From the IMG/VR virus record IMGVR_UViG_3300042901_002340: a stretch of DNA of 64,000 nucleotides; one strand, given 5' to 3'. A program made the translations under genes and the position numbers. Numbering within the stretch: the first letter of the stretch is position 1; every line of letters begins with the position of its first letter. Below, piece after piece: positions 5,653 to 58,811 of the stretch. Under the pieces are notes generated by a model. That model worked only from the letters and a program-made list of their open reading frames with translations. It did not search any database and was not told where the DNA came from. This DNA is from a virus (taxonomy: Duplodnaviria; Heunggongvirae; Uroviricota; Caudoviricetes).

Positions 5653-5893
5653 AACTTTTTAATTTAATATGGCATTATATCAAAAACATAATCTGGTTCC
5701 ACACCAAAATCATATTCAAGTATCTCCTCGGGATTATCCCCATTCAGTACTCTAAGTTTTGCATCGGAGATTAATTTACTAGCTTCTTGGTCTGATAAAC
5801 CATCTCTTTCCATTAGGATTTTTTTTAAGCTCATAATGTTTTGATTTTAATTACATGCAAATATAAAGGATATTTCTTAGTTAAAAAAAATTA

Positions 5894-44300: not shown

Positions 44301-47300
44301 CTTTTTTCATATTAAAAATTTTCTTTGTGTTCTTCTTTAACTATTCTCCACTTTGCTGCTGGTGTGTCGAAATTTGTCCCAACCTCGGCCCAAAGTAGAA
44401 CCATCTTGTCGGTTTCTGTATTGATACACTTCTTATAGAACGATCCGGAGTTGTCCCAGGAACCTATTCCTCCAGTGAATAGATATTTTTTACCGTCTAT
44501 GACGTATGAAATATCATGATCCTCATTAGCTTTGTATCTGGAGAATCTTCTCTTTAGTTCGTGGAATTTTGGGTTCTCAATTACTGTCCTAATAAGCCAT
44601 CCCTTGAGTCCAGAAAATTCTGTTATCTCATTTGTGTAACCTGGTTTATTTAATATTCTGCATCGATAATAGTTTCCTCTTGACAGATTAAAATCCTTGT
44701 CTATTACGATGGTTTGTGCATTGGTTACAATTCTAAATGACACTGTTGAAAATTCGGAAGCTCCCTGCGGTGCTTTCACGTGGTCTCCTTTCCTCAAAGA
44801 ATAATCTTTAAACCCCTCGCCAACGGAAGTTAACTGATCCGTGCCTTCTCTGATTATATCGGACTCTGTGTATTTATGATTAAAATCTAACATTAGTTAT
44901 TTTATTTCAAGTATTGCACACTTAGCATTAGCAACATTTTCAAGATCCTCCATAGTGGCTTCTCTGACAATCTTTAATGAATTTTCCAATAGATAAATGG
45001 TGGAAACGAGAATGTTCCCATCCTCATCCTCGACGTCTATGATGTCCTCCCCACCTTCAGTTGGCCCTATAAGTTTAAATATTTTTCCGTCCAGAGATCT
45101 GTTAGTAGCTCTTGCGATAAATCTATCACCAGCCTCTATAGTTAGATCCTCGTCGATTAGAATTGCTCTTTTCGGAAGATTACTAAACCATTGATTTGAT
45201 TTAATAACGTCCTCTTCCGTTCTGCAGATGTTGTAAACACCGTCGCTGTTTCTGAAAAGGTGATTAACGTAGTCCTTGTGCTTGGTTAATTTTTCAACTG
45301 GAATATCTTTGATAATGGTTATCATAATTTGTTTTTATTTAATTGATTACATGACAAATATATGAAATCCTTTCCAAATAAAAAAATTATTTATCAATTA
45401 TTTTTATAGTGCTCGTTTGCTGCTTTTTTAAGTGTGGCAAGGGTTCCATATTCTCCTATCTGTTCACCACACATAGTAAACAGCTTATACTTAAGATCTG
45501 GTCTTCTGATATCAAAATAGTACGCGGTTTGGCGTCTTAAACCCATAAAATCCGTATATGACTGCTCGCTTCTGTATGTGTAGTTTTCTGTGTAGGAGAT
45601 TTCAGCTCGGTATCTTTCGTCGTTGTTGTTCCATTTTTTACCAGCATAGATTACTGAATTAACCACCATTGTTTTTGATGCTGGTGGTTCCTTAGTCATT
45701 GAGCTGGTTGAACCTGTTTTCTTAATGTCCTGGACAGCAAAGAAATGTAGTGGTGGTTTACTAACGTCTTTTAGCTCCTCTATTTCGAATTCTATTTTGT
45801 TGCAGTCTGCTAGTTTAGCCCAGAACCTAGCACTCTTAGGTCTACCAAAGGCACCGCTCCCTGTTCCTATACCCTCAGCATAAAAGGAGATTGATGACCA
45901 TTCTTCCAGTCCTTTTCTGATGTATATTCTATCAACCTTAAGAACTGTACCAAGTGGTATGGTAACAATTTTATCGTTTGGTTCGGTATCATTCCCACTT
46001 GTACGTCTCCACTCGAATGCGTCACCAAAGTGTTCAATTAGAGTCGAGTTTCTATGCTCGTAATGTAAAGTAAATGACCAATCCTTGGTTAGTCTTAGAC
46101 GATCACCAATTTCAGGTATGTATAATTGCATAATTAATTTTCGGTATCTTCAATGTTAAACTGTTCTCTTATCTTGTACTCGGCTTCTTTAATAACACCA
46201 TGTAGCATATCGATACTATGTAGCGCATCTTTCAATTTATTGTCCGCAATAATTGCAGCTTCATCATCAACAATTTTTTCTATTCCATCATATAATCTCT
46301 GGAGAAGTTTTGGTTCAACCTCGATTCCATTGATAACAAGTTTAATTTCGTAAATGTGTCCATCCTCTTCAGTTTGTTCTGGTGAATAGATCGTTTCATC
46401 TGTTAATGATGACAGCACTTCTTCACAGATCCAATCTTTTACCTTAGCCCTGGTTTTACTTACGATATCCTTAGATGTAATTCTCATGATTTATAATTTT
46501 ACTATTGTGAATATTTCTTTTTTTAATAACTCATCTCTGAGTGATTTAAACATCTTGATTGATTCTGGATCTTCGAATCTGTCCGTTGTTCCGTACTGTG
46601 GTAGAATAGCAATGGTTGCACTAAAATCAACATCAACACCAGATCTCCTCTTTATCTGGGTCTTGCATGATTGCCAATATTGACCCTGCCAGAAAGTTAG
46701 AAAAACCAATTTATAAACTGCCTTCTTGGCAGCATTTTCTGTGTAGTATACCTTTTTATCTCCATCGACCTGTACCCTATTACCTTTATAGAACACCCCA
46801 TACGTGTCCCTAAGTTTGAATTTATCCAATACTATTACTGACGAGTCAATAGCCTTTAAAATGCCTTCTGTTAGCTCCATATCTCCGATAATAGAATATT
46901 AAGTTTCTCTATTATATCAACCACCTCCTGTGTTCTGTCCTCAGTGTAGGAGTCTACCACGTTTCTTCCACTATAGTACTTTCCTCCATAACCAAGTTTA
47001 CCTTGAAATCTCCATTCCCCACACCCATCTTCTGACTCGCAGTGATGATATATGAAGGAATCCCTCATGTTCTCAGAAGCACCTCCTATAGAAACTAGAA
47101 GATCGTATATTTTCTGTGCTTTGCCTGCTGGTATAAGTTTTTCTTTCATTCTTTATCTCGTGTAGCTTTGTTTTGATTCAACATCTATTATTAGTGTTTC
47201 AGCTCCACCAGATTCCCAATCTCCATCACTATAATCAAAATTATATTTGATTCTGAATCTGGAAAGATGCTCATTCAGATGCGTCAATTCTGACTCATTT

Positions 47301-47930
47301 ATTTCTCTGTATCTTTTTCCTTCGACACCAACACGGTACTGAAAAAATTCTATTCCGATTGGTATCAGAAGAGCTATAAATTTTTCTATATCTTCGGAAT
47401 TAGAAAGCACTGATTCCCCACAATAATTACCTTCAGCTAATGCATCAATTATTGTTTTACCTATCCATTCCCAAACCCTTATAAAATCGTTATCGTTATG
47501 TACGATCATTATTCTTTTAATGTCGGATGTTTTCATATTTTAAATTTTTACCACCAGAAGATTCCTCCCCATATTAATACGAATGCTATCAATAGAATAA
47601 CATAGAATGGGGTTTCTATATCAAATCCATAGTCCCCTTTTGATTCGCCGCTACTCTTTCTTATCTTTATTAATAGTAATAAAACTATTATAATAAATGG
47701 TATTAGATTCCAGTGTATTGTTATCATAACTATTGAAAATCTGAGATTGAGTTGTTAAACTTAGCTCCGACCTGATTACCAGCCATAGCACCCATGCAAT
47801 ACATCTTACAGTATTCAAATGACTGTGGTCCTTCCGATGTAAGTAAAACGATATAGTCCGGATGGTTAACAGACATAGAAGTTACTATTAGTTTGTTTTT
47901 ACTCTTTACTAAATATACGAAATTTTTCAT
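41381..47930 (-). other. run of about 16 hypothetical ORFs, including 41685..42506, lipoproteins 42785..43048 and 43628..43948, secreted 43951..44310, and 45394..46131
   Basis: Abutting minus-strand ORFs under class II promoters near 45370 and 47970. Confidence 0.65.
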
Positions 47931-47986
47931 ACCTATTTGTTTTTAAATTGATATGCAAATATATGAAATCCTTTCGAATAAAAAAA

Positions 47987-49690
47987 TTATTCGGCAATTA
48001 TTTTTACGTACCCAGTGCCGTATTCTGTACTAAACCAAACCTTTTTGTCCTTTGGTAGATCAACCTTACCTGTTCCGTATATCGATGGAATATTAAGAGC
48101 TTTAGATAGTGCAAGTATATGGGAGAAGTTTGTATCGTTCTCAACTAGAAGCGCTTTCTTTCCTAATAAAGCCTCCGAATCACAGTCTTCCTCTACAACT
48201 AGAATGTCGTCAGTATTTACTTCCTCACCATTGTTAGAGTAGTATGGTTTAGAGAATGTTTTACCTATAACTATAGCTTTCTCTAGCTCCTCTTTTTGTG
48301 GTTCAAAGTTTACCTGTGGACTGCCTTTCAGCGTTCTAAATTGAACTATCCTGATGTCTCCCTCAGCAACTCTGACAAATTCCAGCTGGATGTCTTCTTC
48401 AAACGTGGTTGCAAGTTCTCTGGCAATTTTTCTTAGTGCCGATTGATCATCCAAACTTATTTCAAAGTTGGACTTTTTACCACCAACAATATCCCCTTGG
48501 ACGGAGCTGCATGCTATCTTTATATCGTATTCCATTAGATTTGCGTACTCTCTGGCATATCCCTTGCTAACTTCCCTTGTTTTAATACAATTAAGGACAC
48601 CATTCTTCCCTTCCAGATACTCCTGATAGAACCAATTTATTCGGTTTTTGCCACGTACCTCTTTATATTTTTCAAAATCCTGCTGGATTTTAATTACTGC
48701 ATTATGTGCTTCCTTCTCGTCGTTAGCTTTGATGCTATTAAGAAGTCCAGGAATTGAATATACTGGCGAGGTTCTAACGAAGTTAGATTTCCAATCTATT
48801 CTAAAATCTTTGGAAACTTCGCATGTTTTGATATGAGGAAAGAATTTTTTTAGAAACATTATGTTTCCGTACTTAGTACCCATTGCCTGTTTGTAACAGA
48901 AGAATTCTCTCATCCCTTCTGAAACAGATCTTTTCTCTGAGCTTGAATAATGCCGGAGATGATATTCTCTAAGCCTCCATAGTTCTGTCATCTGTTCATC
49001 GGTAAGATGATAGTTTTCATTAAGATCGAAATGTAGTGATTCCAACCCAAAAGCAGCAGCACCACATAGCATGTTGGATGATATTGATACTGCATCACAG
49101 TCCAACCTGTCCTCGCCTTTAACCAATCCCAATTGAACAAGAACTGGATAAAGTGAAACATGATCCTGGTAACCACACTGAGCAAATTCACCATTTCTCA
49201 TTAGTAGTCCAGAGATTGTTTGATCGTTCTGTGTTATTGCATCGTACAGTGTGGTTAATGTGTACCCTTCTTCCTCTATGATGTATTTGTAGCATCTCTG
49301 GTAGATTTCTTCAACCGTAAAATATTCTAAAAGAGTAACTATATCTCTATAACCAGATTTAGCAATCTCTCTTATCTCCATAGTTTTATTATTCCATCTG
49401 TCCTCTTTTCTGTTAGCTGAAACAATTGCTGTTCTGATAGCGTAGTATAATGTTTCATTGAAGTCTTCAGGTTCATCAGGTAGAAATTCACAACTTAAAC
49501 CTTCTTCGGTTCTTGTATCCCCACTCAACTTCATTCTGTAACTGAATGCTAATTTTTTCTGTGGTCTATCCAGATTACCGTCACCCAGTAACAAGTGATA
49601 CTTTTCAAACTCTCCGGATCTGAAGAAATCATCCATCAGACCCATGTAGGATTCGCCAGTGGTCCAAAAATGTAGTGTTCCTGATTCCAT
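47987..49690 (-). CDS. PEP-utiliser-like protein (divergent ATP-grasp segment plus C-terminal phospho-His swivel domain)
   Basis: DIQLEFV...IRIVQFRTL resembles the PPDK_N DIEWA...ILQAR; SHILALSKALNIPSIYG resembles SHAAIVARELGIP. Confidence 0.6.
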   Translation of the reverse strand: MESGTLHFWTTGESYMGLMDDFFRSGEFEKYHLLLGDGNLDRPQKKLAFSYRMKLSGDTRTEEGLSCEFLPDEPEDFNETLYYAIRTAIVSANRKEDRWNNKTMEIREIAKSGYRDIVTLLEYFTVEEIYQRCYKYIIEEEGYTLTTLYDAITQNDQTISGLLMRNGEFAQCGYQDHVSLYPVLVQLGLVKGEDRLDCDAVSISSNMLCGAAAFGLESLHFDLNENYHLTDEQMTELWRLREYHLRHYSSSEKRSVSEGMREFFCYKQAMGTKYGNIMFLKKFFPHIKTCEVSKDFRIDWKSNFVRTSPVYSIPGLLNSIKANDEKEAHNAVIKIQQDFEKYKEVRGKNRINWFYQEYLEGKNGVLNCIKTREVSKGYAREYANLMEYDIKIACSSVQGDIVGGKKSNFEISLDDQSALRKIARELATTFEEDIQLEFVRVAEGDIRIVQFRTLKGSPQVNFEPQKEELEKAIVIGKTFSKPYYSNNGEEVNTDDILVVEEDCDSEALLGKKALLVENDTNFSHILALSKALNIPSIYGTGKVDLPKDKKVWFSTEYGTGYVKIIAE

Positions 49691-49792
49691 TATTTTGTTT
49701 ATTGATTACAAGGCAAATATATTAAATTATTTTTGGATAAAAAAATTATTGGATATATTTTTTGATATATAGATGATAAAATACAACTAAAT

Positions 49793-50473
49793 ATGGAAAA
49801 TTTAAAATCTTTTGGTGAATTTATTAACGAGGCTACTCTTAATCCGGCTTTAGCTTTTGGTAATGCGTTTAACGCCAAACCTGAAGTGGATAGTGATATT
49901 GAGGATTCATCAGATATGGATGCTCCTGACACCAACGACCAGGTAACTCTTAAAAGTTTAGGTTTAACTAACACTTCTTCCGGAAGCATATTTACACCGT
50001 TGGATCTTAAAACCGCTTCTGGATTCAAAACTTATTCAGATATTGCTCAGAAGTGGATCAATAAAACAAACCCATCATCCCCAATAAAAGGTGAAATGCT
50101 GGCCAACGGTGCGAAAAAAGCCCTACTAGACCATGGATCTTATATCCCTCCACAACTTGCACTTGCCCAGCTAACAATGGAAGGTGGACTAAGTAAGGAT
50201 CCTAAGGTTAAACCAATTAGAACAAAAAATCCATTCAATGTTGGTAACGTTGATAGTGGAGCAGTTGTTAAACATAGCAATTGGCAATCTGGTATCGACG
50301 CATACTTTAAAACTATGGCCAAGAATTATGTGGTTCCATCACAGAATAAAACTGCTACAGGTCTGCTTAATAGGTTTGTCAATACTAAAAATCAGAGATA
50401 TGCTTCAGCTTCAAATTACGAGAAATCGATAACGTCAACAATAAATAGTATAAATAAAACACTAACCGCATAA
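49793..50473 (+). CDS. glucosaminidase-like muralytic protein with MENLKSFGEFINE N-terminus
   Basis: LALAQLTMEGG...NPFNVG...W..GI.AY; GATATATAG promoter. Confidence 0.7.
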   Translation: MENLKSFGEFINEATLNPALAFGNAFNAKPEVDSDIEDSSDMDAPDTNDQVTLKSLGLTNTSSGSIFTPLDLKTASGFKTYSDIAQKWINKTNPSSPIKGEMLANGAKKALLDHGSYIPPQLALAQLTMEGGLSKDPKVKPIRTKNPFNVGNVDSGAVVKHSNWQSGIDAYFKTMAKNYVVPSQNKTATGLLNRFVNTKNQRYASASNYEKSITSTINSINKTLTA

Positions 50474-50501
50474 AAAAGTCCGATAGAAATATCGGGCTTT
50501 T
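50471..50501. terminator. bidirectional terminator
   Basis: aaaaaagtccgata-gaaa-tatcgggctttt. Confidence 0.8.
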
Positions 50502-50684
50502 TAGTTTTGCGTGATGCTTCCAAATAGAGTTATTCGCATATTAGTTAGCAGAAATTAAATTATGTCACACTTCATTTTTGTTAAATAAAATCAGAATATA
50601 GTGACCTAAATATATAAACTTTTCTTCACAAATCTTTATAATTTTTTGGTTTTTCATATTATAATTAATTGGAAATTAGAGTTT

Positions 50685-50724
50685 TATAAAAAGGTATTTA
50701 TATATACTAGTTACCTGCAAGCAC
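50685..50724 (+). other. attI/attG-like entry site of the cassette array (GTT at 50710)
   Basis: GTTACCTGCAAGCAC complements the left end of attC1 at 13/15, but no hairpin arm lies to its left. Confidence 0.65.
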
Positions 50725-50787
50725 TACTGACCTGCATCAAATAAAGTTCCGTGAGAAAAACTTTTATTAAAATTTCCCACCGCACAA

Positions 50788-51153
50788 TTAATCAGGAACT
50801 TCATCTCTTAAATTGTGTGTTCTTTGACCTTGCAATAGTTCCGCTACTTCGTAATCAATATATATTTTTGTGTGTGGATTATGGTTTCTAAACAAATACC
50901 TTATCGCAGGTTCAACAGCAGAATCAAAATCATCTCCGTTGTATGTTTTTGAAAATTTAGAATAGGGAAAGTGAAATTTAACTTTGTCCTCAATCCATTT
51001 TTCAATTTCATCAAACTTTTCAATTTCAAATATTTCCACTTCCTTAAAACCATTCATTCGGTCTCCAATTTTTATCTGTATTCCAGAATCCCACATCCAA
51101 TCTATTAGGATGTTAATTTCACTTTCATAAAGTGCTTTTAATAGTGTTTTCAT
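50788..51153 (-). CDS. cassette 1 hypothetical protein
   Basis: 121 aa inside the 50710-51412 segment. Confidence 0.7.
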   Translation of the reverse strand: MKTLLKALYESEINILIDWMWDSGIQIKIGDRMNGFKEVEIFEIEKFDEIEKWIEDKVKFHFPYSKFSKTYNGDDFDSAVEPAIRYLFRNHNPHTKIYIDYEVAELLQGQRTHNLRDEVPD

Positions 51154-51155
51154 AA

Positions 51156-51374
51156 TTATGTTTTTATTGGTTTAAAATCTGTTATTTTATCATTGTGGTA
51201 TTGCTCTAAAAATTCAGCCACAAATGATTTCTTGTCAAAAGATGCAAATGACACGCCTGTTTTTCTGTCAGATAAAACAATTCGTTTGCTTTTGATGTTT
51301 CTTCTGATTTCAATTTCTAAGTATTCTTTTTTCCCTTCGCTCATTTTAATAAAAGTTTTTTGTTCGTGTTCCAA
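51156..51374 (-). CDS. cassette 1 hypothetical protein (TTG start)
   Basis: 72 aa; in-frame TAG 13 nt upstream limits the start. Confidence 0.5.
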   Translation of the reverse strand: MEHEQKTFIKMSEGKKEYLEIEIRRNIKSKRIVLSDRKTGVSFASFDKKSFVAEFLEQYHNDKITDFKPIKT

Positions 51375-51405
51375 ATTAAGTTCCTGCTAAATTTACCGTG
51401 CCAGC

Positions 51406-51537
51406 AGGTAACACACGTTTGGCAAAAGTGGCGGTGCAGTACTCCGCTCGACATTTACTGCAAGGTTCAACATTCGTTCTACGCATTGGAATTTGTGGTT
51501 AAAATCGCCACCTTCGCCAAGCGTGGGAACGTTAGCA
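51406..51537 (+). mobile_element. attC-like site 1 (132 bp)
   Basis: aggTAACacacgtttggcaaaagtggcg ... cgccaccttcgccaagcgtgggaacGTTAgca. Confidence 0.88.
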
Positions 51538-51972
51538 GTAACTTTTGAAAAGCGTAACGCAAATCAGAATAATTAATGCTATAAAATTTATCCAATTAAA
51601 AAATCTTACATTTTGATACCAAGCGGAATCAACTATAAAATTTCTTGCACCATCAAAATACATCAAAGGAATAAAAGTTATCAATCTAAATGGAATCCAT
51701 AATAAATTGAAAATTATACACCAAATTGTTATTTGTAATCCTGTAATTGGTAGTTTAATTCCTTTATGTAATTGCCTAAATGAAAATGTTGTAAAGTCAA
51801 AAAATAAATATACATAATGACCTTTTTTAATATTTTTACCTATTCTGAAAAATCCGTTATGAAAACCAAAATAATGTTTGTCATAATTAGAAAATTTACG
51901 AACCTTAAAGAATAAAGCTACTGCTAACAGCATTTTGTGGCAATTGCGGGGTTTAGGTTTATTTTCAAGCAT
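51532..51972 (-). CDS. cassette 2 membrane protein
   Basis: 146 aa; ATG inside the attC2 loop; TAA stop inside the GTTA of attC1. Confidence 0.75.
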   Translation of the reverse strand: MLENKPKPRNCHKMLLAVALFFKVRKFSNYDKHYFGFHNGFFRIGKNIKKGHYVYLFFDFTTFSFRQLHKGIKLPITGLQITIWCIIFNLLWIPFRLITFIPLMYFDGARNFIVDSAWYQNVRFFNWINFIALIILICVTLFKSYC

Positions 51973-52057
51973 TGTTTTTTAATTTAAAGATTAGTCTATT
52001 CTTGTGTGGTCTAGGTTAATTCGTCCGCAACTGACCACAAGATGCGAAACGTTATAA
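51922..52057 (+). mobile_element. attC-like site 2 (136 bp)
   Basis: tgcTAACagcattttgtggcaattgcgg ... ccgcaactgaccacaagatgcgaaacGTTAtaa. Confidence 0.88.
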
Positions 52058-52063
52058 GTAACT

Positions 52064-52483
52064 TTACTCAGCGTTGCGTTTAAGAAATCTATTAAATTTA
52101 CTATCATTGTTTTTGGTTGGTAATTTTGTTAAGTATTCAATCAAAAAACTATTTTTTGCATGTTTATGATTTATCGGAAATCCACTTTCTTCATCAAATT
52201 CTTTTGCAGTTTCCCAAAATAAATGCTCTTTAAAACTGTTAATAACACTATGAGAATCTCCCTCTCCCCAATAGTCTTGTGTCCATTCGTGTAATTCAGG
52301 TAAACATTCTCTAAAAGCGTATTTATTTTTACCTTTTCTTCTTCTTTGTCTTTTGCCATAAAGAAGATACTCCCAACCTAAATGTTTTAAATTAATTCTT
52401 AATATTTCAAAAATTCCTTTTTTATACATTAGCTTTAAAATCCTTTTTTCATCTTTAAGATGTTTTCTGATATATTTTTTCAT
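52064..52483 (-). CDS. cassette 3 basic hypothetical protein
   Basis: 139 aa filling the segment between attC2 and attC3. Confidence 0.75.
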   Translation of the reverse strand: MKKYIRKHLKDEKRILKLMYKKGIFEILRINLKHLGWEYLLYGKRQRRRKGKNKYAFRECLPELHEWTQDYWGEGDSHSVINSFKEHLFWETAKEFDEESGFPINHKHAKNSFLIEYLTKLPTKNNDSKFNRFLKRNAE

Positions 52484-52498
52484 AACTAAAAAAGCTAC

Positions 52499-52631
52499 TT
52501 ATAACAACTACTACAAGCAATAGCTAGAATAGTCATTGAATTAATAATTAATTTTTGTTTGTTGTCATTCGGTCAAACTCCGATGTTTTGGCTTGTTTGT
52601 CCGCTACTGCCTGTAGTAGCAAACGTTATAG
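52499..52631 (+). mobile_element. attC-like site 3 (133 bp)
   Basis: ttaTAACaactactacaagcaatagc ... gctactgcctgtagtagcaaacGTTAtag. Confidence 0.88.
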
Positions 52632-52646
52632 CACATTAAAACGATG

Positions 52647-52779
52647 CTATAACAAAGTATAAAAGCAATAACCTAACTTGCGTGGCATCTCTATACTCTC
52701 GTATATATTTTTTTCCTTTATCCACTCTCGAAGCTACATTTCTAAGGTCTGTTACTGCTTATACACTCAACCGTTAGCG
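52647..52779 (+). mobile_element. attC-like site 4 (133 bp)
   Basis: ctaTAACaaagtataaaagcaataac ... gttactgcttatacactcaaccGTTAgcg. Confidence 0.85.
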
Positions 52780-52785
52780 GAAATG

Positions 52786-52995
52786 CTATGGACACCTAAA
52801 TCCATTGTGAACTATTTCCCACTCCCAATATTTTGAGTTGTTTTTTCTAACTCTATTTTCTGACCAACCTTGCTTATACCAAACAAACTGATAAGGATTA
52901 GACTTACGAGAAGCACTTCCGCTAACATCGGTTTGTTGCAAGCGGGGCTTCTGTGGTTTAATGAAGTGTAGTAATTCTAATAATCTTCGTATCAT
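52786..52995 (-). CDS. cassette 5 small protein
   Basis: 69 aa; ATG in the attC5 loop; attC arm encodes KPRLQQTDVSGS. Confidence 0.65.
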   Translation of the reverse strand: MIRRLLELLHFIKPQKPRLQQTDVSGSASRKSNPYQFVWYKQGWSENRVRKNNSKYWEWEIVHNGFRCP

Positions 52996-53053
52996 AATTT
53001 AGAGTTTTGTGTTTCTAATTCCCCGCCTGACAACAAGCCGAGAAACGTTATGG
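52920..53053 (+). mobile_element. attC-like site 5 (134 bp)
   Basis: cgcTAACatcggtttgttgcaagcgggg ... ccccgcctgacaacaagccgagaaacGTTAtgg. Confidence 0.9.
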
Positions 53054-53233
53054 TTAATTTAACCACTCAATACCACTATGAATTCGTGAAACTGTAACAT
53101 CATCATCTAACATAATTAAGTCAGTATAATTGAAATAATCCGTGACTGTATATTTAATACCATTGTATTTCACTTTTCTACCAATTAAACTAACCATAAC
53201 ATCAGATATATTCAATTTTTTATTCTCTTCCAT
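53054..53233 (-). CDS. cassette 6 small protein (59 aa, not in the ORF track)
   Basis: MEENKKLNISDVMVSLIGRKVKYNG...GIEWLN; ATG in the attC6 loop. Confidence 0.7.
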   Translation of the reverse strand: MEENKKLNISDVMVSLIGRKVKYNGIKYTVTDYFNYTDLIMLDDDVTVSRIHSGIEWLN

Positions 53234-53316
53234 GAATTTATTATTTTAGATTACAAAGGTAAACATTTATTTTCAATTTTCAAAATAAAACTGAATATAT
53301 CTGAGTATCGTTATTC
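53194..53316 (+). mobile_element. attC-like site 6 (123 bp), carries an internal promoter
   Basis: ccaTAACatcagatatattca ... tgaatatatctgagtatcGTTAttc. Confidence 0.82.
53254..53284 (-). promoter_or_regulatory. Bacteroidota-type promoter inside the attC6 loop
   Basis: TTTG, 19-nt spacer, TACCTTTG, then the ATG at 53233. Confidence 0.75.
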
Positions 53317-53712
53317 TCCTGTTTCTTCCTGGAATTCTTGAGCCATCCAATCGACAAAATTTGGTTCAGAAATCTCCTCAATCTCCCCCATCTCAAATTC
53401 TATTTCTTCTTCCCTACGGTTTACCCCAGCATTGAATGAGAACTCCATGTCCTCTCTAGTAAATCCTCCAAGTTTTCTAATCAACTCTTCCCTCTGTTTA
53501 GAGTTAATAGTTAATACTGCACAGGATCCTTGTTCATATTCACCTGCAGCGTTCTCCAGTATGTAGTCTGCATATTCACCAAGGTCTTCAAAGTCTTCTT
53601 CATCAAACTCCTCGTCATTCTCTGAGATTTTAATTGTTTCAACTCTAACCTCTTCGTTGAGAGATCCTCTTACCGCTATGAGGATGTGCTCCTCTTCCTG
53701 TACTTTTGCCAT
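53311..53712 (-). CDS. acidic hypothetical protein
   Basis: 133 aa; TAA stop inside the GTTA of attC6. Confidence 0.75.
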   Translation of the reverse strand: MAKVQEEEHILIAVRGSLNEEVRVETIKISENDEEFDEEDFEDLGEYADYILENAAGEYEQGSCAVLTINSKQREELIRKLGGFTREDMEFSFNAGVNRREEEIEFEMGEIEEISEPNFVDWMAQEFQEETGE

Positions 53713-54034
53713 TGTTTATGATTTTTTTTCTAATTTATTTACTATTAAGACTCCAAGAGGACCCGATACTGCGGCAATTAGCATTATTAACCAGATTGGA
53801 TAAACGTACCCATGGTAGTGACCTGTGTCAATATCCATTGTAAAAAATGCAATGAAGTGAGGTAGTGTTAGTAAAAAGTATACCCCAACTGACATTATAA
53901 TTGTCATCGATAATTTTTGTAATTGATTCATATTGGTTTATTTTAATTGCAAGACAAATATATGAAATTCATTTTAAATAAAAAAATTATTAAAGATATT
54001 TTTTTGATATATAGATGACAAAATACAACTAAAA

Positions 54035-54874
54035 ATGGAGAGATTAAAAAGTTTTAATGAATTTATAAATGAGGATGAATTCAAAATAGATGATCCTTCA
54101 AAAGCAGGTACACAGTTGGTTAATACTATTTCCCAGAATGTACCAGCTCATGAAGTCGGTAACAATAGTGGTGCTGTTGTCAATAAGTTTCAAAGATCTG
54201 TTGGTATATCCGATGGACAACCTTGGTGTATGGCTTTCATATACTATATCTTTGAAGAATTCAGTAAAAAATTGGGAATTACTAATCCGGTATATAAAAC
54301 TGGATCAACGTTGGACGAATGGGAAAAAACAAAAGGTAAAAAGATAACGGCGGAACAAGCAAAATCCAATTTTTCCTTGGTTAAACCCGGACAAATAATG
54401 ATAGCAAAAAGGGAAGGCGGCGGACATGCTGGTATAGTTACTAGTGTTGATTATAATGGGAAGAAATACACAACTATTGAAGGTAATGTTGGAATAGGTG
54501 GAGGAAAACAAGGGGTTGGATCATATAATAGGTCAATCCTAGTAGAGGGGCTTATCGGCTTTATTGATTATTTTCCGGATAGAAGTCCTGAATTTGATAG
54601 TAGTTTTATCTCAGCAATGAAGGGTGCAAAGCTAACTGATGCGAGCAGAAATGCAGTGGTTAGATCCCTACCTGGTGACGATATTATCGGTGGTGACTCT
54701 GCAGCTAGTTCTGCTGAGGAAGATAAAAAAAATACTTCCGGTGGACTTCTTGGTAAGATAGTTAGTGGGGCTAGAAAATTTACAAGTATAGGTAGGAAGG
54801 AAGAGGACGGTGGTGATGATAGCATAAGTGCAAAGGATGCAGTTGAAGCATTTGGTAGAGTAACGGGAAAATAA
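54035..54874 (+). CDS. CHAP-domain amidase/peptidase with MERLKSFNEFINE N-terminus
   Basis: PWCMAF...GHAGIV...TIEGN catalytic motifs; GATATATAG promoter; terminator at 54893-54921. Confidence 0.85.
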   Translation: MERLKSFNEFINEDEFKIDDPSKAGTQLVNTISQNVPAHEVGNNSGAVVNKFQRSVGISDGQPWCMAFIYYIFEEFSKKLGITNPVYKTGSTLDEWEKTKGKKITAEQAKSNFSLVKPGQIMIAKREGGGHAGIVTSVDYNGKKYTTIEGNVGIGGGKQGVGSYNRSILVEGLIGFIDYFPDRSPEFDSSFISAMKGAKLTDASRNAVVRSLPGDDIIGGDSAASSAEEDKKNTSGGLLGKIVSGARKFTSIGRKEEDGGDDSISAKDAVEAFGRVTGK

Positions 54875-55206
54875 CAATTAACATATAAAATCAAAAAAGG
54901 TCTGATTTCTCAGACCTTTTTCTTGTAATCAATCAAAACAAATAGCAATTCTGGCGGAATTGTATTATTCGATTAGTTCTGGAAATTTTTCCTCTATCTC
55001 GTATCTATCATGTCCAAATCTCTCTCTAAGCATATTACTTAGAGCTATTGGACCTGACGTGTATTCAACCATTGGGTATTTTTCACCCTCGTCTAATGGT
55101 AGAACGTTACGTTCTATTGAGTACTCTTCCAGATATTGAAAAAACAAAGAGTCAAACTCCTCATTTTCCCCTAGTACTGTTTGTATTTTTATTGTTACCA
55201 GTTTCA

Positions 55207-55764
55207 TTATGTATAAACTACTATTCCGTTCTCTGCTCCCAATCTAAATGCCTCTGTGAAATCTTCATATGTTCTCATCTCCCATTCTATTGCCGTACTA
55301 TCATAGCTAAATTCCCTCATGAGATAATTCTGAAATTTCTCTCGGTTCTCAACAAATTGTGGATGTAGCTTTTTACAAACTTCAGTTCCTAATATACCCT
55401 CACAATCACTAAAGTTTATCATTTCGAACACTGGTGAATTTTTATATTCACCAGTGTTGTTCCATATAATCTCCGGCTCAACGCCAACTACCGCTTTGGA
55501 AAGAATCCTTCTGAATCTATTGTAGCTACCATAACTTCCAGCTCTGAAATGATGCTCCTCCGTTAGATCAGTTTCTGCATATTTTCCGCCCTCCATATCT
55601 TCGCACTTATTGTATCCACCTTGCTCAGATCCGTATGGTGTGGTGTTTATCTTGATTCTGGTTTTCTTTATCTTGGGCCTTAGTTGCCAAGATAGAGATT
55701 TAACCCTCTCGTCCAATTTAACTTTCTTCTCGAGATTGCTGATTGCCATTATATCTAATCCCAT
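55207..55764 (-). CDS. hypothetical phage protein
   Basis: MGLDI...FRAGSYGSYNRFR...INFSDCEG. Confidence 0.7.
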   Translation of the reverse strand: MGLDIMAISNLEKKVKLDERVKSLSWQLRPKIKKTRIKINTTPYGSEQGGYNKCEDMEGGKYAETDLTEEHHFRAGSYGSYNRFRRILSKAVVGVEPEIIWNNTGEYKNSPVFEMINFSDCEGILGTEVCKKLHPQFVENREKFQNYLMREFSYDSTAIEWEMRTYEDFTEAFRLGAENGIVVYT

Positions 55765-55826
55765 TCTATCTGTTTTTAATTACATTGCAAATATATGAAA
55801 TTCATTTCAAATAAAAAAATAATTTT

Positions 55827-58811
55827 TCAATTAAATTTTCTATATGGTTCAACTGAAATGACTCTTGATTTATAATACGAGCTCTCTAGACACTTAGGGC
55901 AAAGGTTTCTCCCATATACTCCATTTTTTGGAGTACTTGGATTTACATTCATCGTTGCGATCTTAATTTGGTCCTCTATAAAGTCATTATAGCAACCTCC
56001 ACACATGATAATGGATTCTTTTTTCTTCTTTCCCATAGTAAAAAAATTAGGGGATTCAAGAATAAACCCAATCCCCAGGCTGATCATTGGTTACAGACCA
56101 ACTACAACTACAACAAAATTTTAAATATTTTCGCTCCTATCAGTTTCCTTGTTGTTAACTGAAACTGCTTTCATGAATATTATCACGAGAACCGCTCCAA
56201 ACCAACTATTTAGACTTAGCTTAACAGGGAATCCTATGTATTGCAGTCCAAGAACTAGAGACAATGGCAGGCAAATAGCTATTGCTACAGCTGCTATCAA
56301 GCCCAATAGGATAAGTCCTATATTCTTTTTGCTCTTTCCGCTCTTTAGTATTTTTTCTATTAATCCTTTCATAGCTTATAAAGTTATTCCAAATTCGTTA
56401 ACCTCGTCCCTTTTTCCTATTGACCATGTTGAGTTACCATCTATAAGGATTTCAACTATCTGACCATATTTAGAATTGGATGATATTCTAGTAATGTAAT
56501 TTGCAGGATTTTTAATTTTATCGTAAGTAAACGATTTACCGCTTTGATAGATGACAGTTACGTCATATCCTCCAGGTTTTAGACTTAGAGGATTTGTTCT
56601 GAAGTCATCTCCAACGTGAATGTTTTTCCCCATTTTATTTTCCGTTAAAAGGATCCATGTCCTTGTTAGGTATTAGATTCCAGCTTTTTTCTGCTCCTGG
56701 CGATTGCATGATGCTTATTGATTTTGCTTTCTCTTTTAGTAAGATTAAGGCTTGCTCCATATCACCATCAGCAATAATAGCTCTGATTTCCTTTGCTATA
56801 TCAGTGGCAACATCAACCATATAAAGAACAGAATGTCTTTGTCTGTTAGCGTTGACCGTTAGAGCCATAAGTGATAGCTCTCTTGGGTCCGCAGCGAATG
56901 TGTCTGTCTTCGCACTGAATGGAACTGGAAGGAATGATTCTATTCCGTTTGCACTGGCTATTCCGTAGTATTTCATTTTCTTATGTTTTTAATTGTTAGG
57001 CAAATATAATAATAAAAATCGAATAAAAAAAATATTTTTCGATTTTTTTTAATGGAGGAGGATCGATTTAGTTTAAGATCTCTCCTCCGTATATATTGGG
57101 CTTTGGTTATATATCAATGATCTTCCCAGTATTTTCTTCTTGTTGAATCGATGTAACTTAAAGTTAGAGGCACGTCGAAAAAAAAATTATAGTACTCTTC
57201 ATTGGTTGGTGGTTTTATTTCCTTCAACTTCCAACTCATAACGAGGGAATCTATTTCACCCCTTTTCACCGTCTTTATTTTTAGAAGTCTTTCGTTTCTT
57301 AGTTTGTTTCTTACCTCGTTGCCACCAGCCTCCTTGATACATTTTTTTAGAATGTATTTTTTTCTAAGAGTTCTTATTTTTCTCTTTAACATCCTTAGAA
57401 GTTTCATCCTTAAAATGTTTTATTCTTTCTTCGAGTACTTTTTCACTAAGATCGAATCCCTCGCTAATTAGATGTTCATGGAGACCTGATTTGTCTATCT
57501 TTTTATTCGCTTGATAGTATTTTTCAATTATTCTAAAAATAATATCTTCTTTAGTTGCTCTTTCCATTATTTAGATGGTTTGTTAACCAACATTGATATA
57601 CAATGCAGCATAATTGTGCTCTTGTCTTCTGGATTGATTATACTGGAATCCAATTCTCTTCTTAGAGCTTCTGCTTGGAGATATACGCTTCTCGCTATTT
57701 TCTTGACTGCTTTGTCGTAATCCACTAATAGTGCCTCTGTTTTTCCGTCCATGTTTGATGGTTTATTTTAAATTTGGTTTACCGCAGATCTTTATTACGC
57801 ATTTGTAACAAGTTACTGCTGTAGCCTTTTCGTCAACATTTGTGACTTTTTCTCCGCATAGTTTACACGGCATGCTTTTTGATGTTCTGGCTTTATTGTA
57901 ACTAGAACCTCCTGAGTTTTTAGTAGTAGCCATCTGCTTCAAGTTGTTTAAGTTCATTAATAACATTTTGGTCAGGTATAACTTCTCTCCCGGGCATATG
58001 CTCACTAACGAATTTTTGTAGAAATCCGCATCTCTCGTATTCCTCTCTTTCCAGAAACAGAGCTGTCATTCTGTTTATTGCACTACCTATTGATTCCTCG
58101 GTGCTTCCTTCCATGGCTTTTGATCCTTGCTTGGCAAGCAGATCGTATGCAACATAACAGCCATCTATAAAACTCCTTAATGTTTCCCTTCTGGTTCTTT
58201 CCGCTACCTCTCTGGCTTGTTCTTCAAGATACCCGTTGATATCTTCTCCTAAGTCATCATCGTCATTTTCGTACATATTACTCTATAATGTTAATTTTAT
58301 TTACTAGATCCAACTCTTTAGCTTCCCTATAAAGGGTTCCTCCCTCTGAGACTATCTCCATTTCACCTTCGAAAATGGAACTCGTGTCCCTGTAGATTTT
58401 TTCTCTAACAATGGCTCCTCCTGCAAGGTATGTTCTGTTCTTGATTTCGTCGTGTTTTTTCCTATTATCAGTTTTACATACAAATCTTATTGCTGCCATA
58501 TTTAATGGTTTTTTTATATATGTATTCTAGTATAAAAAATCACAAAAATTTCATTAGACAATAAAAAATTACACTTCAGAGTCCCTCATCGAATTGATGT
58601 ATCCTTTGAATAGAATTTTCTCTCTGCCATTCATGGTAGAGTGAAACTGTTCAAAGTTTCCTGATGAAGCTTTAAAGTCTTGGATTAGAAGATTGAGTGT
58701 TCTACTTTCTACCTGTGTTTTAATCTTTGGTGATTTTGTGCGATTTTTTCTAACCTGTGGTTGTGTGGTGGTGGCAGCATCTACCTTCATTTTGCCTCTT
58801 AGTCTTTCCAT
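55827..58811 (-). other. run of about 11 small hypothetical ORFs, including 56635..56976 and 57920..58276
   Basis: Compact minus-strand ORFs. Confidence 0.6.

Follow-up and report, generated by a model that had tools for sequence, protein, structure and literature searches.

Nucleotides 50513-53310 of the window, as we call the whole 64,000-nt stretch of DNA analysed here, are very probably a decayed phage integron-like platform located in the short spacer of two convergent genes, and not a group of cassettes inserted into a bare GTT. The window corresponds, in reverse complement, to positions 104150-168149 of a virus record of 430,120 bp, which has direct terminal repeats and is rated complete; the genes of this 430-kb phage are mostly small and mostly on the minus strand. 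The features of the locus, in window coordinates, are the following.

49793-50473, plus strand: resident glucosaminidase-like gene, 226 aa, flanking the insert on the left (sub-threshold Pfam match to PF01832, E=2e-5)
50473-50502: bidirectional terminator hairpin shared by the convergent resident genes, found by a terminator scan and kept in all relatives
50503-50512: last 10 nt of the resident spacer (agttttgcgt); BLAST homology with the closest relative, L261, stops at 50512
50513-53310: inserted element, 2,798 nt (94 nt, intI stump, predicted attI and six cassettes), absent from relatives L253-L262
50513-50606: 94-nt stretch that separates the intI stump from the left junction; matches to intact intI extend leftwards no further than 50607
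50607-50657, minus strand: vestige of the recombinase gene intI, its first 17 codons, now within ORF 50565-50657 (30 codons)
50658-50713, plus strand: predicted attI, i.e. the 52-nt spacer from the intI ATG to G50710 and the GTTA core; crossover between G50710 and T50711
50711-51531, plus strand: cassette 1, with antisense ORFs 50788-51153 and 51156-51374 (minus strand) and attC1 at 51409-51534
51532-52051, plus strand: cassette 2, with antisense ORF 51532-51972 and attC2 at 51925-52054
52052-52625, plus strand: cassette 3, with antisense ORF 52064-52483 and attC3 at 52502-52628
52626-52773, plus strand: cassette 4, without a gene, with attC4 at 52650-52776
52774-53047, plus strand: cassette 5, with antisense ORF 52786-52995 and attC5 at 52923-53050
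53048-53310, plus strand: cassette 6, with antisense ORF 53054-53233 and attC6 at 53197-53313; its last base, G53310, forms the right junction of the insert
53311-53712, minus strand: resident gene, 133 aa, acidic, with 50 homologues; its TAA stop is the TTA that follows G53310

The empty locus in related phages

When single flanking proteins were used as queries against viral contigs no relatives were retrieved, and the relatives were obtained through a protein database with the resident 133-aa protein. A megablast search of GenBank phages with nucleotides 46000-58000 gave no match. Four lineages without the array were identified: P0002/P0003 (89-90% identity of the resident protein), P0004 (85%), P0016 (84%) and P0037 (71%). 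In these lineages 45-48 nt separate the resident 133-aa gene from the convergent glucosaminidase-like gene, which abuts it in all relatives, and neither the array nor its leader is present. The empty spacers of the relatives align with each other and with nucleotides 50503-50512 of the window. In the BLAST comparison with L261, homology ends at 50512 and resumes at 53311, with four unaligned bases in the relative. These two breaks, at 50512/50513 and 53310/53311, define an insert of 2,798 nt, and since nucleotides 50513-50709 are absent from all four lineages, this stretch belongs to the insert as well.

The two junctions differ in kind. The right one is exactly G/TTA (the slash marks the crossover), with the G contributed by attC6; the base that precedes the TTA in the closest relative is A. 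The left one has no GTT and lies 197 nt to the left of the attI crossover point, which means that at least one step in the history of the locus was not site-specific. An exact 25-mer across the left junction was found nowhere else in the viral or metagenome collections. Insertion at an attG site would leave flanks that are contiguous at a single G/WT in the empty genomes; only the right junction fits this description. The initial annotation had predicted an empty locus that reads ...tatatactaG/TTATTCTCC..., and its right half is indeed found in the relatives (TTATTCT..., with the resident stop codon), but its left half is not: instead of the predicted junction, the four lineages show the terminator, 16-19 nt and the TTA stop.

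An opposite course of events, in which the platform was ancestral at this locus and was cleanly deleted in the relatives, is very improbable. The recombinase gene of such platforms does decay often (an intact gene occupies the 52-nt position in 3 of 38 attI-bearing phage arrays), and deletions are common around elements of this type. However, four lineages with protein identities of 71-90% all have the same gap of 45-48 nt with mutually alignable spacers, which would demand four independent near-precise deletions, and a related 386-kb phage has an intact platform elsewhere, upstream of its PIF1 helicase gene.

In a fifth lineage, L263 (5400-5810), the same spacer holds a different gene of 122 aa without attC, and a frameshift divides the resident gene (92 + 52 aa). 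Foreign genes enter this spacer by more than a single route. Adjoining the locus, the gene of a 567-aa protein (47987-49690) is kept in several relatives (565-570 aa), with other genes in its place in the P0037 lineage and in L261, a distribution which suggests that the surrounding region is variable.

Six attC sites and their cassettes

The GTTA at 50710-50713 is followed by 9-13 nt complementary to nucleotides 51400-51412, the inverse core of attC1. Both strands of the 430-kb genome were scanned for TAAC...GTTA stems. A single cluster was obtained, formed by the six imperfect hairpins listed above, all within 51409-53313; the four other matches fall within the range of shuffled sequence (3-7 per strand). 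No attC-type hairpin was detected by this whole-genome scan to the left of 50710. Both results agree with the initial annotation, which had placed the start of cassette 1 at G50710 with no hairpin to its left. An Rfam scan of 50300-53500 gave no match to the hairpins, and one sub-threshold sRNA match over the terminator.

The sites have the form TAACA-stem-loop-stem-AAAC-G/TTA and are 117-130 nt long, with about 127 nt being typical. They fold into a stem of approximately 20 bp with a loop of 60-75 nt, and their spacers are asymmetric, 5 nt long next to GTTA against 1 nt next to TAAC. A single base after a conserved CTG in the GTTA-proximal arm is bulged in five of the six sites. The segments between sites have complementary ends of 10-16 nt each. 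As already noted in the initial annotation, the GTTA of attC6 (53310-53313) contains the stop codon of gene 53311-53712 (TAA on the minus strand, 53311-53313).

All cassette ORFs of the window array are antisense to the attC top strand. The six hairpins are all located upstream of minus-strand ORFs, and several ORF starts lie inside hairpin loops. No function could be assigned to the cassette proteins from Pfam or PHROGs; the sole match in these databases was a weak one between the 121-aa cassette product and phrog_16206, a family of unknown function. The alternative of a minus-strand attC top strand, with crossovers at TAA/C, was also examined. This reading was rejected because bacterial arrays with this site family consist of sense ORFs followed by TAACA...AAACGTTA, and because only the plus-strand reading gives complete cassettes at both ends. 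A sigma-70 promoter scan, which is ill-suited to Bacteroidota promoters, gave no more matches than shuffled sequence.

The absence of a tyrosine recombinase from the window, reported previously, holds for the complete genome. Six-frame searches of the whole genome gave no match to PF00589, for which all 14 control genomes were positive, and none to PF13495; tblastn with two cognate recombinases of other members of the site family, described below, gave no match either, and with the enzyme of L128 no recombinase remnant rose above noise. With six attC sites and no tyrosine recombinase genome-wide, the array falls under the definition of a CALIN (at least two attC sites and no integron integrase nearby).

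The same site family in Bacteroidota and in other phages

A strict pattern derived from three of the six sites was used to scan bacterial genomes (a collection with one genome per species) and viral contigs. It was found in at least 120 bacterial loci, nearly all in Bacteroidota, and in at least 119 viral contigs, both tallies being lower bounds. By its site pattern, the attC family of the window is assigned to the integron-like arrays of Bacteroidota. In at least 20 bacterial and viral loci a tyrosine recombinase gene adjoins the sites. The bacterial arrays, as in L012, L063 and two complete or near-complete chromosomes, have sites that follow sense ORFs and start just downstream of the recombinase gene. 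By this layout, the plus strand of the window corresponds to the attC top strand and position 50710 to the attI-proximal end, so that the earlier proposal of a polar array entered at 50710 is upheld.

The orientation of the cassette genes relative to the attC top strand is reversed between the two groups. In loci L001-L239, we counted 73 sense and 16 antisense genes in the bacterial loci and 5 sense and 120 antisense genes in the viral contigs. The recombinase gene is likewise flipped in phages, and it is therefore co-directional with the cassette genes in bacteria and phages alike: in the phage platforms it is encoded opposite to the attC top strand and points away from the array.

Eight intact phage recombinase genes, encoding 265-280 aa, were extracted. 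In all of them except L022, a GTT core is located 51-53 nt upstream of the start codon. Beyond this core, attC arrays were found in L128, L135, L157, L158 and L188/L219, and one attC in L115 and L203. In L265 and L267, six or more attC sites form an array next to the recombinase start. The intact platform of L265 (2400-7804), a related phage contig of 386 kb, comprises approximately 14 small genes, at least six attC sites and a 267-aa recombinase gene, directly upstream of the gene for PIF1 helicase. In the genome studied here, homologues of PIF1, RNA ligase, phosphoesterase and ClpP are present at 8-18 kb, and there is no platform upstream of PIF1; related phages thus carry the platform at different loci. 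Between positions 5685 and 9573 of this genome (C1), the homologues that flank the L265 platform are present, with other genes between them. In L231 (8753-10154) we observed a second and independent state of decay, where the recombinase is cut to 93 aa, the N-terminal domain, and is immediately followed by an RNA ligase gene. In L265, unlike L231, a helicase gene and a 204-aa gene lie between the recombinase and RNA ligase genes.

The cognate recombinases scored below the cut-off of the integron integrase model TIGR02249, with matches in two pieces that skip model positions 180-238, and their best score was obtained with an archaeal XerA-type model, slightly under its cut-off. When the phage enzyme was compared with VchIntIA/IntI4 (2A3V), it had 33 residues where IntI4 has 80, whereas it aligned in one piece to XerA and XerC-like structures. 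The shorter segment and the uninterrupted Xer alignment indicate a recombinase without the IntI-specific insert. The recombinases near the arrays of L128 (6886-7686), L012 (250-1389) and L135 (7198-7998) all lack this insert. The bacterial versions have N-terminal extensions and reach 379-580 aa.

The array of the window shares the whole set of traits of these phage elements: attC sites of about 127 nt of the form TAACA...AAACGTTA, the attI core ...TAT..A..TA/GTTA, the 52-nt spacer and antisense cassettes. In several phage arrays (L141, L184 and L188/L219) the sequence TTACAAATAT was observed just past the last attC. On the other strand it reads like the Bacteroidota -7 motif (TAnnTTTG) pointing into the array, and it may represent a putative distal promoter for the antisense genes.

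These data also bear on the possibility that the hairpins are regulatory or terminator repeats, like the promoter-stem-loop cassettes of T4-type phages, and that it is homologous recombination, without any site-specific recombinase, which shuffles them. The position of the six hairpins upstream of minus-strand ORFs, with several ORF starts in the loops, and the lack of a recombinase in the genome would be compatible with such repeats. We nevertheless consider this highly unlikely, given that the site family adjoins a tyrosine recombinase gene in at least 20 bacterial and viral loci, that the segment ends are complementary over 10-16 nt, that the cassette found in common with another phage (cassette 5, see below) ends at G/TTA cores, and that bacteria and phages have a conserved attI core in common.

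The entry point is a predicted attI beside a recombinase stump

The region between the left resident gene and the array (50474-50709) measures 236 nt. This agrees with the previously reported length of about 240 bp of AT-rich non-coding DNA, but the region is not featureless: it contains the terminator at 50473-50502 and the 30-codon minus-strand ORF 50565-50657, which includes the intI stump. Positions 6945-7051 of L265 are 88.8% identical over 107 nt (BLAST, E=2.6e-33) to genome positions 117437-117543, which correspond to 50607-50713 of the window. The DNA of the stump is nearly identical to the start of the intact intI genes of L267 and L265. In a four-way alignment the first 17 codons are near-identical, the 52-nt spacer is ungapped from the ATG to GTTA, and homology is lost to the left of 50607. 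The origin of the remaining 94 nt (50513-50606) was searched in all the fetched loci, where no significant match was found, only short chance matches.

The 93-aa ORF of L231 is located at the same distance of 52 nt, and its first 17 residues are those encoded by the window ORF 50565-50657. The L231 product corresponds to the integrase N-terminal domain PF13495 (E=4e-11) and 974 homologues longer than itself were retrieved; among the best 120, a length of 267 aa predominates. The top homologue, the intact 267-aa recombinase P0052, is 100% identical to the L231 product over 90% of the length of the latter, and the N-terminus predicted for P0052 is very likely the same as the 17 residues of L231.

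Additionally, an nhmmer profile built from seven intact intI-attI regions had its best genome-wide match at 50646-50716, ungapped from the start codon to GTTA; the match is weak (E=0.11), yet it falls in the exact predicted place and register. A profile of eight more distant recombinase N-termini did not pick out the 30-aa ORF, which ranked 816th of 11,528; the stump was recognised only through the closer relatives L231, L265 and L267.

The left flanks of 38 phage arrays share the core ...T-A-T-n-n-A-K-T-A/GTTA, and the intI-proximal junction of six bacterial arrays ends in the same core. The corresponding region of the window ends in ...TATATATACTA G/TTA at 50710, and on a position weight matrix of the 38 arrays this site ranks 11th among the 3,849 GTTA sites of the genome. 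An attI beside intI at the array-proximal end, a trait of classical integrons, can therefore be recognised here, with intI reduced to a 17-codon stump. The homology of 50607-50713 to the 5' end of intI and attI of intact platforms, with the same 52-nt gap, indicates that the entry point is an attI accompanied by a recombinase stump. Judged from these alignments, the site at 50710 is the predicted attI of a platform that has lost its recombinase gene beyond codon 17.

The initial annotation had regarded the entry point as a bare or degenerate GTT, a reading that the attI homology and the stump at 52 nt contradict. That a trans-acting IntI placed one or more cassettes into a bare attG-like GTT, with everything to the left of 50710 being resident and an empty site reading ...TATATACTAG/TTATTCTCC..., is extremely unlikely, since, for all that no hairpin lies to the left of 50710, no integrase is encoded in the genome, insertion by IntI1-3 at genomic G/WT sites is documented (bioRxiv 10.1101/2022.09.11.507474) and the right junction does fall on the resident TTA, nucleotides 50513-50709 are missing in the relatives along with the cassettes, 50607-50713 has homologues in intact platforms, and the left-junction 25-mer has no other exact occurrence in the collections searched.

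Cassettes and sites in common with other phages

Cassette 5 is 92% identical in L234, an unrelated phage contig of 69 kb, and the homology is bounded by AAC(C)G/TTA cores. Among the sites, attC1 is 90.5% identical to an attC of L136 and 75-77% identical to bacterial attC sites, and attC2 is 82-86% identical to attC sites in L206, L226, L229, L217 and L238, 83.6% in L180 and 81.8% in L186. The cassette appears to be the unit of mobility, with a predicted crossover at G/TT. A segment reaching from the beginning of the 72-aa gene in cassette 1 to within the left arm of attC1 (51321-51441) is 79-84% identical in L155, L215, L212 and L231, with an additional match of 49 nt (86%) in L132; the remainder of cassette 1 has no DNA match in the arrays of these five contigs.

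The initial annotation had further suggested that cassette 1 may be the newest and that a recombinase may act in trans. In four other assemblies the window array is 100% identical wherever it is covered, two of them containing the whole array and two only its right-hand part, and no sign of current turnover was seen among them. In L251 and L252, which represent the same phage, the contigs end inside cassette 3, at 52249 and 52144, and not at an attC; low coverage or population variation may account for these breaks.

Proposed origin of the locus

As a best explanation for the decayed platform, we propose that a complete platform joined the locus by a crossover of its last attC with the TTA of the resident stop codon, used as a secondary site. 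Such a crossover would explain the exact right junction. The left junction at 50512/50513 and the loss of intI past codon 17 would then have resulted from one or more deletions or joins that were not site-specific. A point against the secondary-site step is that the closest relative has an A, and not the G of the published G/WT consensus, in front of the target TTA; L261 is a relative and not the direct ancestor. It should also be mentioned that the use of IntI biochemistry as an analogy for cognate recombinases without the insert is an assumption.

The orphan attI, which differs little from the intact attI of L265, may accept cassettes if a cognate recombinase is provided by a co-infecting phage or by the host. 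More tentatively, the platforms themselves could be mobile, although we hold this to be rather less than probable: the recombinase gene, attI and array would move together to a new locus or phage when the last attC recombines with a secondary TTA or GTT site, the gene would then decay, and the orphan attI and attC sites would serve as a landing pad and cassette bank on which co-infecting phages with a 267-aa recombinase might act in trans. Assembly ERZ17174968 contains a phage with such a recombinase together with the closest empty-site relative.

Comparison with known systems

Like classical integrons, the system described here has a polar array, hairpin sites of uniform length with TAAC/GTTA ends (the classical inverse core and core are RYYYAAC and G/TTRRRY), a crossover at G/TT, an attI beside the start of the recombinase gene, cassettes common to different genomes as discrete units, and remnants without an integrase. 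Classical integrons also include decayed forms with truncated intI as well as CALINs (PMC4889954). IntI is defined by an additional domain of about 35 residues near patch III (Cury et al. 2016, PMC4889954), whereas the cognate recombinase of the present family is Xer-like, 265-280 aa long and lacks the IntI insert. The attC sites may also differ from the classical ones, whose unpaired central spacer is near-symmetric and whose extrahelical bases mark the bottom strand, in their spacers (1 versus 5 nt) and in the single bulged base on the GTTA-proximal arm. The phage cassette genes are antisense to the attC top strand, whereas those of classical integrons are co-oriented with it and are read from a promoter at the attI end. 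The bacterial members of the family, in which intI and the cassettes are co-directional, resemble in this respect the "inverted integrase" integrons of the Treponema denticola type. In those chromosomal integrons the recombinase is a true IntI, additional domain included.

Qi et al. 2023 (PMC9892861) described 17 phage CALINs with classical attC models and discussed array boundaries and GTTRRRY-like motifs. The present array is similar to these in being an attC cluster without an integrase, their cases being found in virulent phages. It goes beyond them in having an attI, a recombinase stump, an empty site, mirror-image cassettes and a family recombinase without the insert, with both boundaries located to the base. 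Insertion of cassettes by IntI1-3 at genomic G/WT sites (attG) has been reported by Loot et al. (bioRxiv 10.1101/2022.09.11.507474). The right junction is similar to such an insertion, in that the terminal attC (...G) is joined to a TTA of resident DNA that is not part of an att site. The left junction, unlike that of an attG insertion, is not the reciprocal G/TT product; approximately 200 nt of platform DNA (attI and the intI stump) came along, and the base preceding TTA at the target is A in the closest relative. In the searchable literature we found no description of a system with a recombinase lacking the insert, of mirror-image phage cassettes, or of an attI with a recombinase stump in a phage.

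With the empty site and both junctions located to the base, the locus offers a view of a 430-kb phage before and after it gained an integron-like platform. It indicates that orphan phage arrays can be decayed complete platforms and not stray cassettes, which alters the reading of viral CALINs, and it ties the phage to a very large system with mirror-image cassettes, whose recombinase lacks the insert used to define IntI. Should the orphan attI prove functional with a recombinase provided in trans, giant phages would draw small accessory genes from a common pool.
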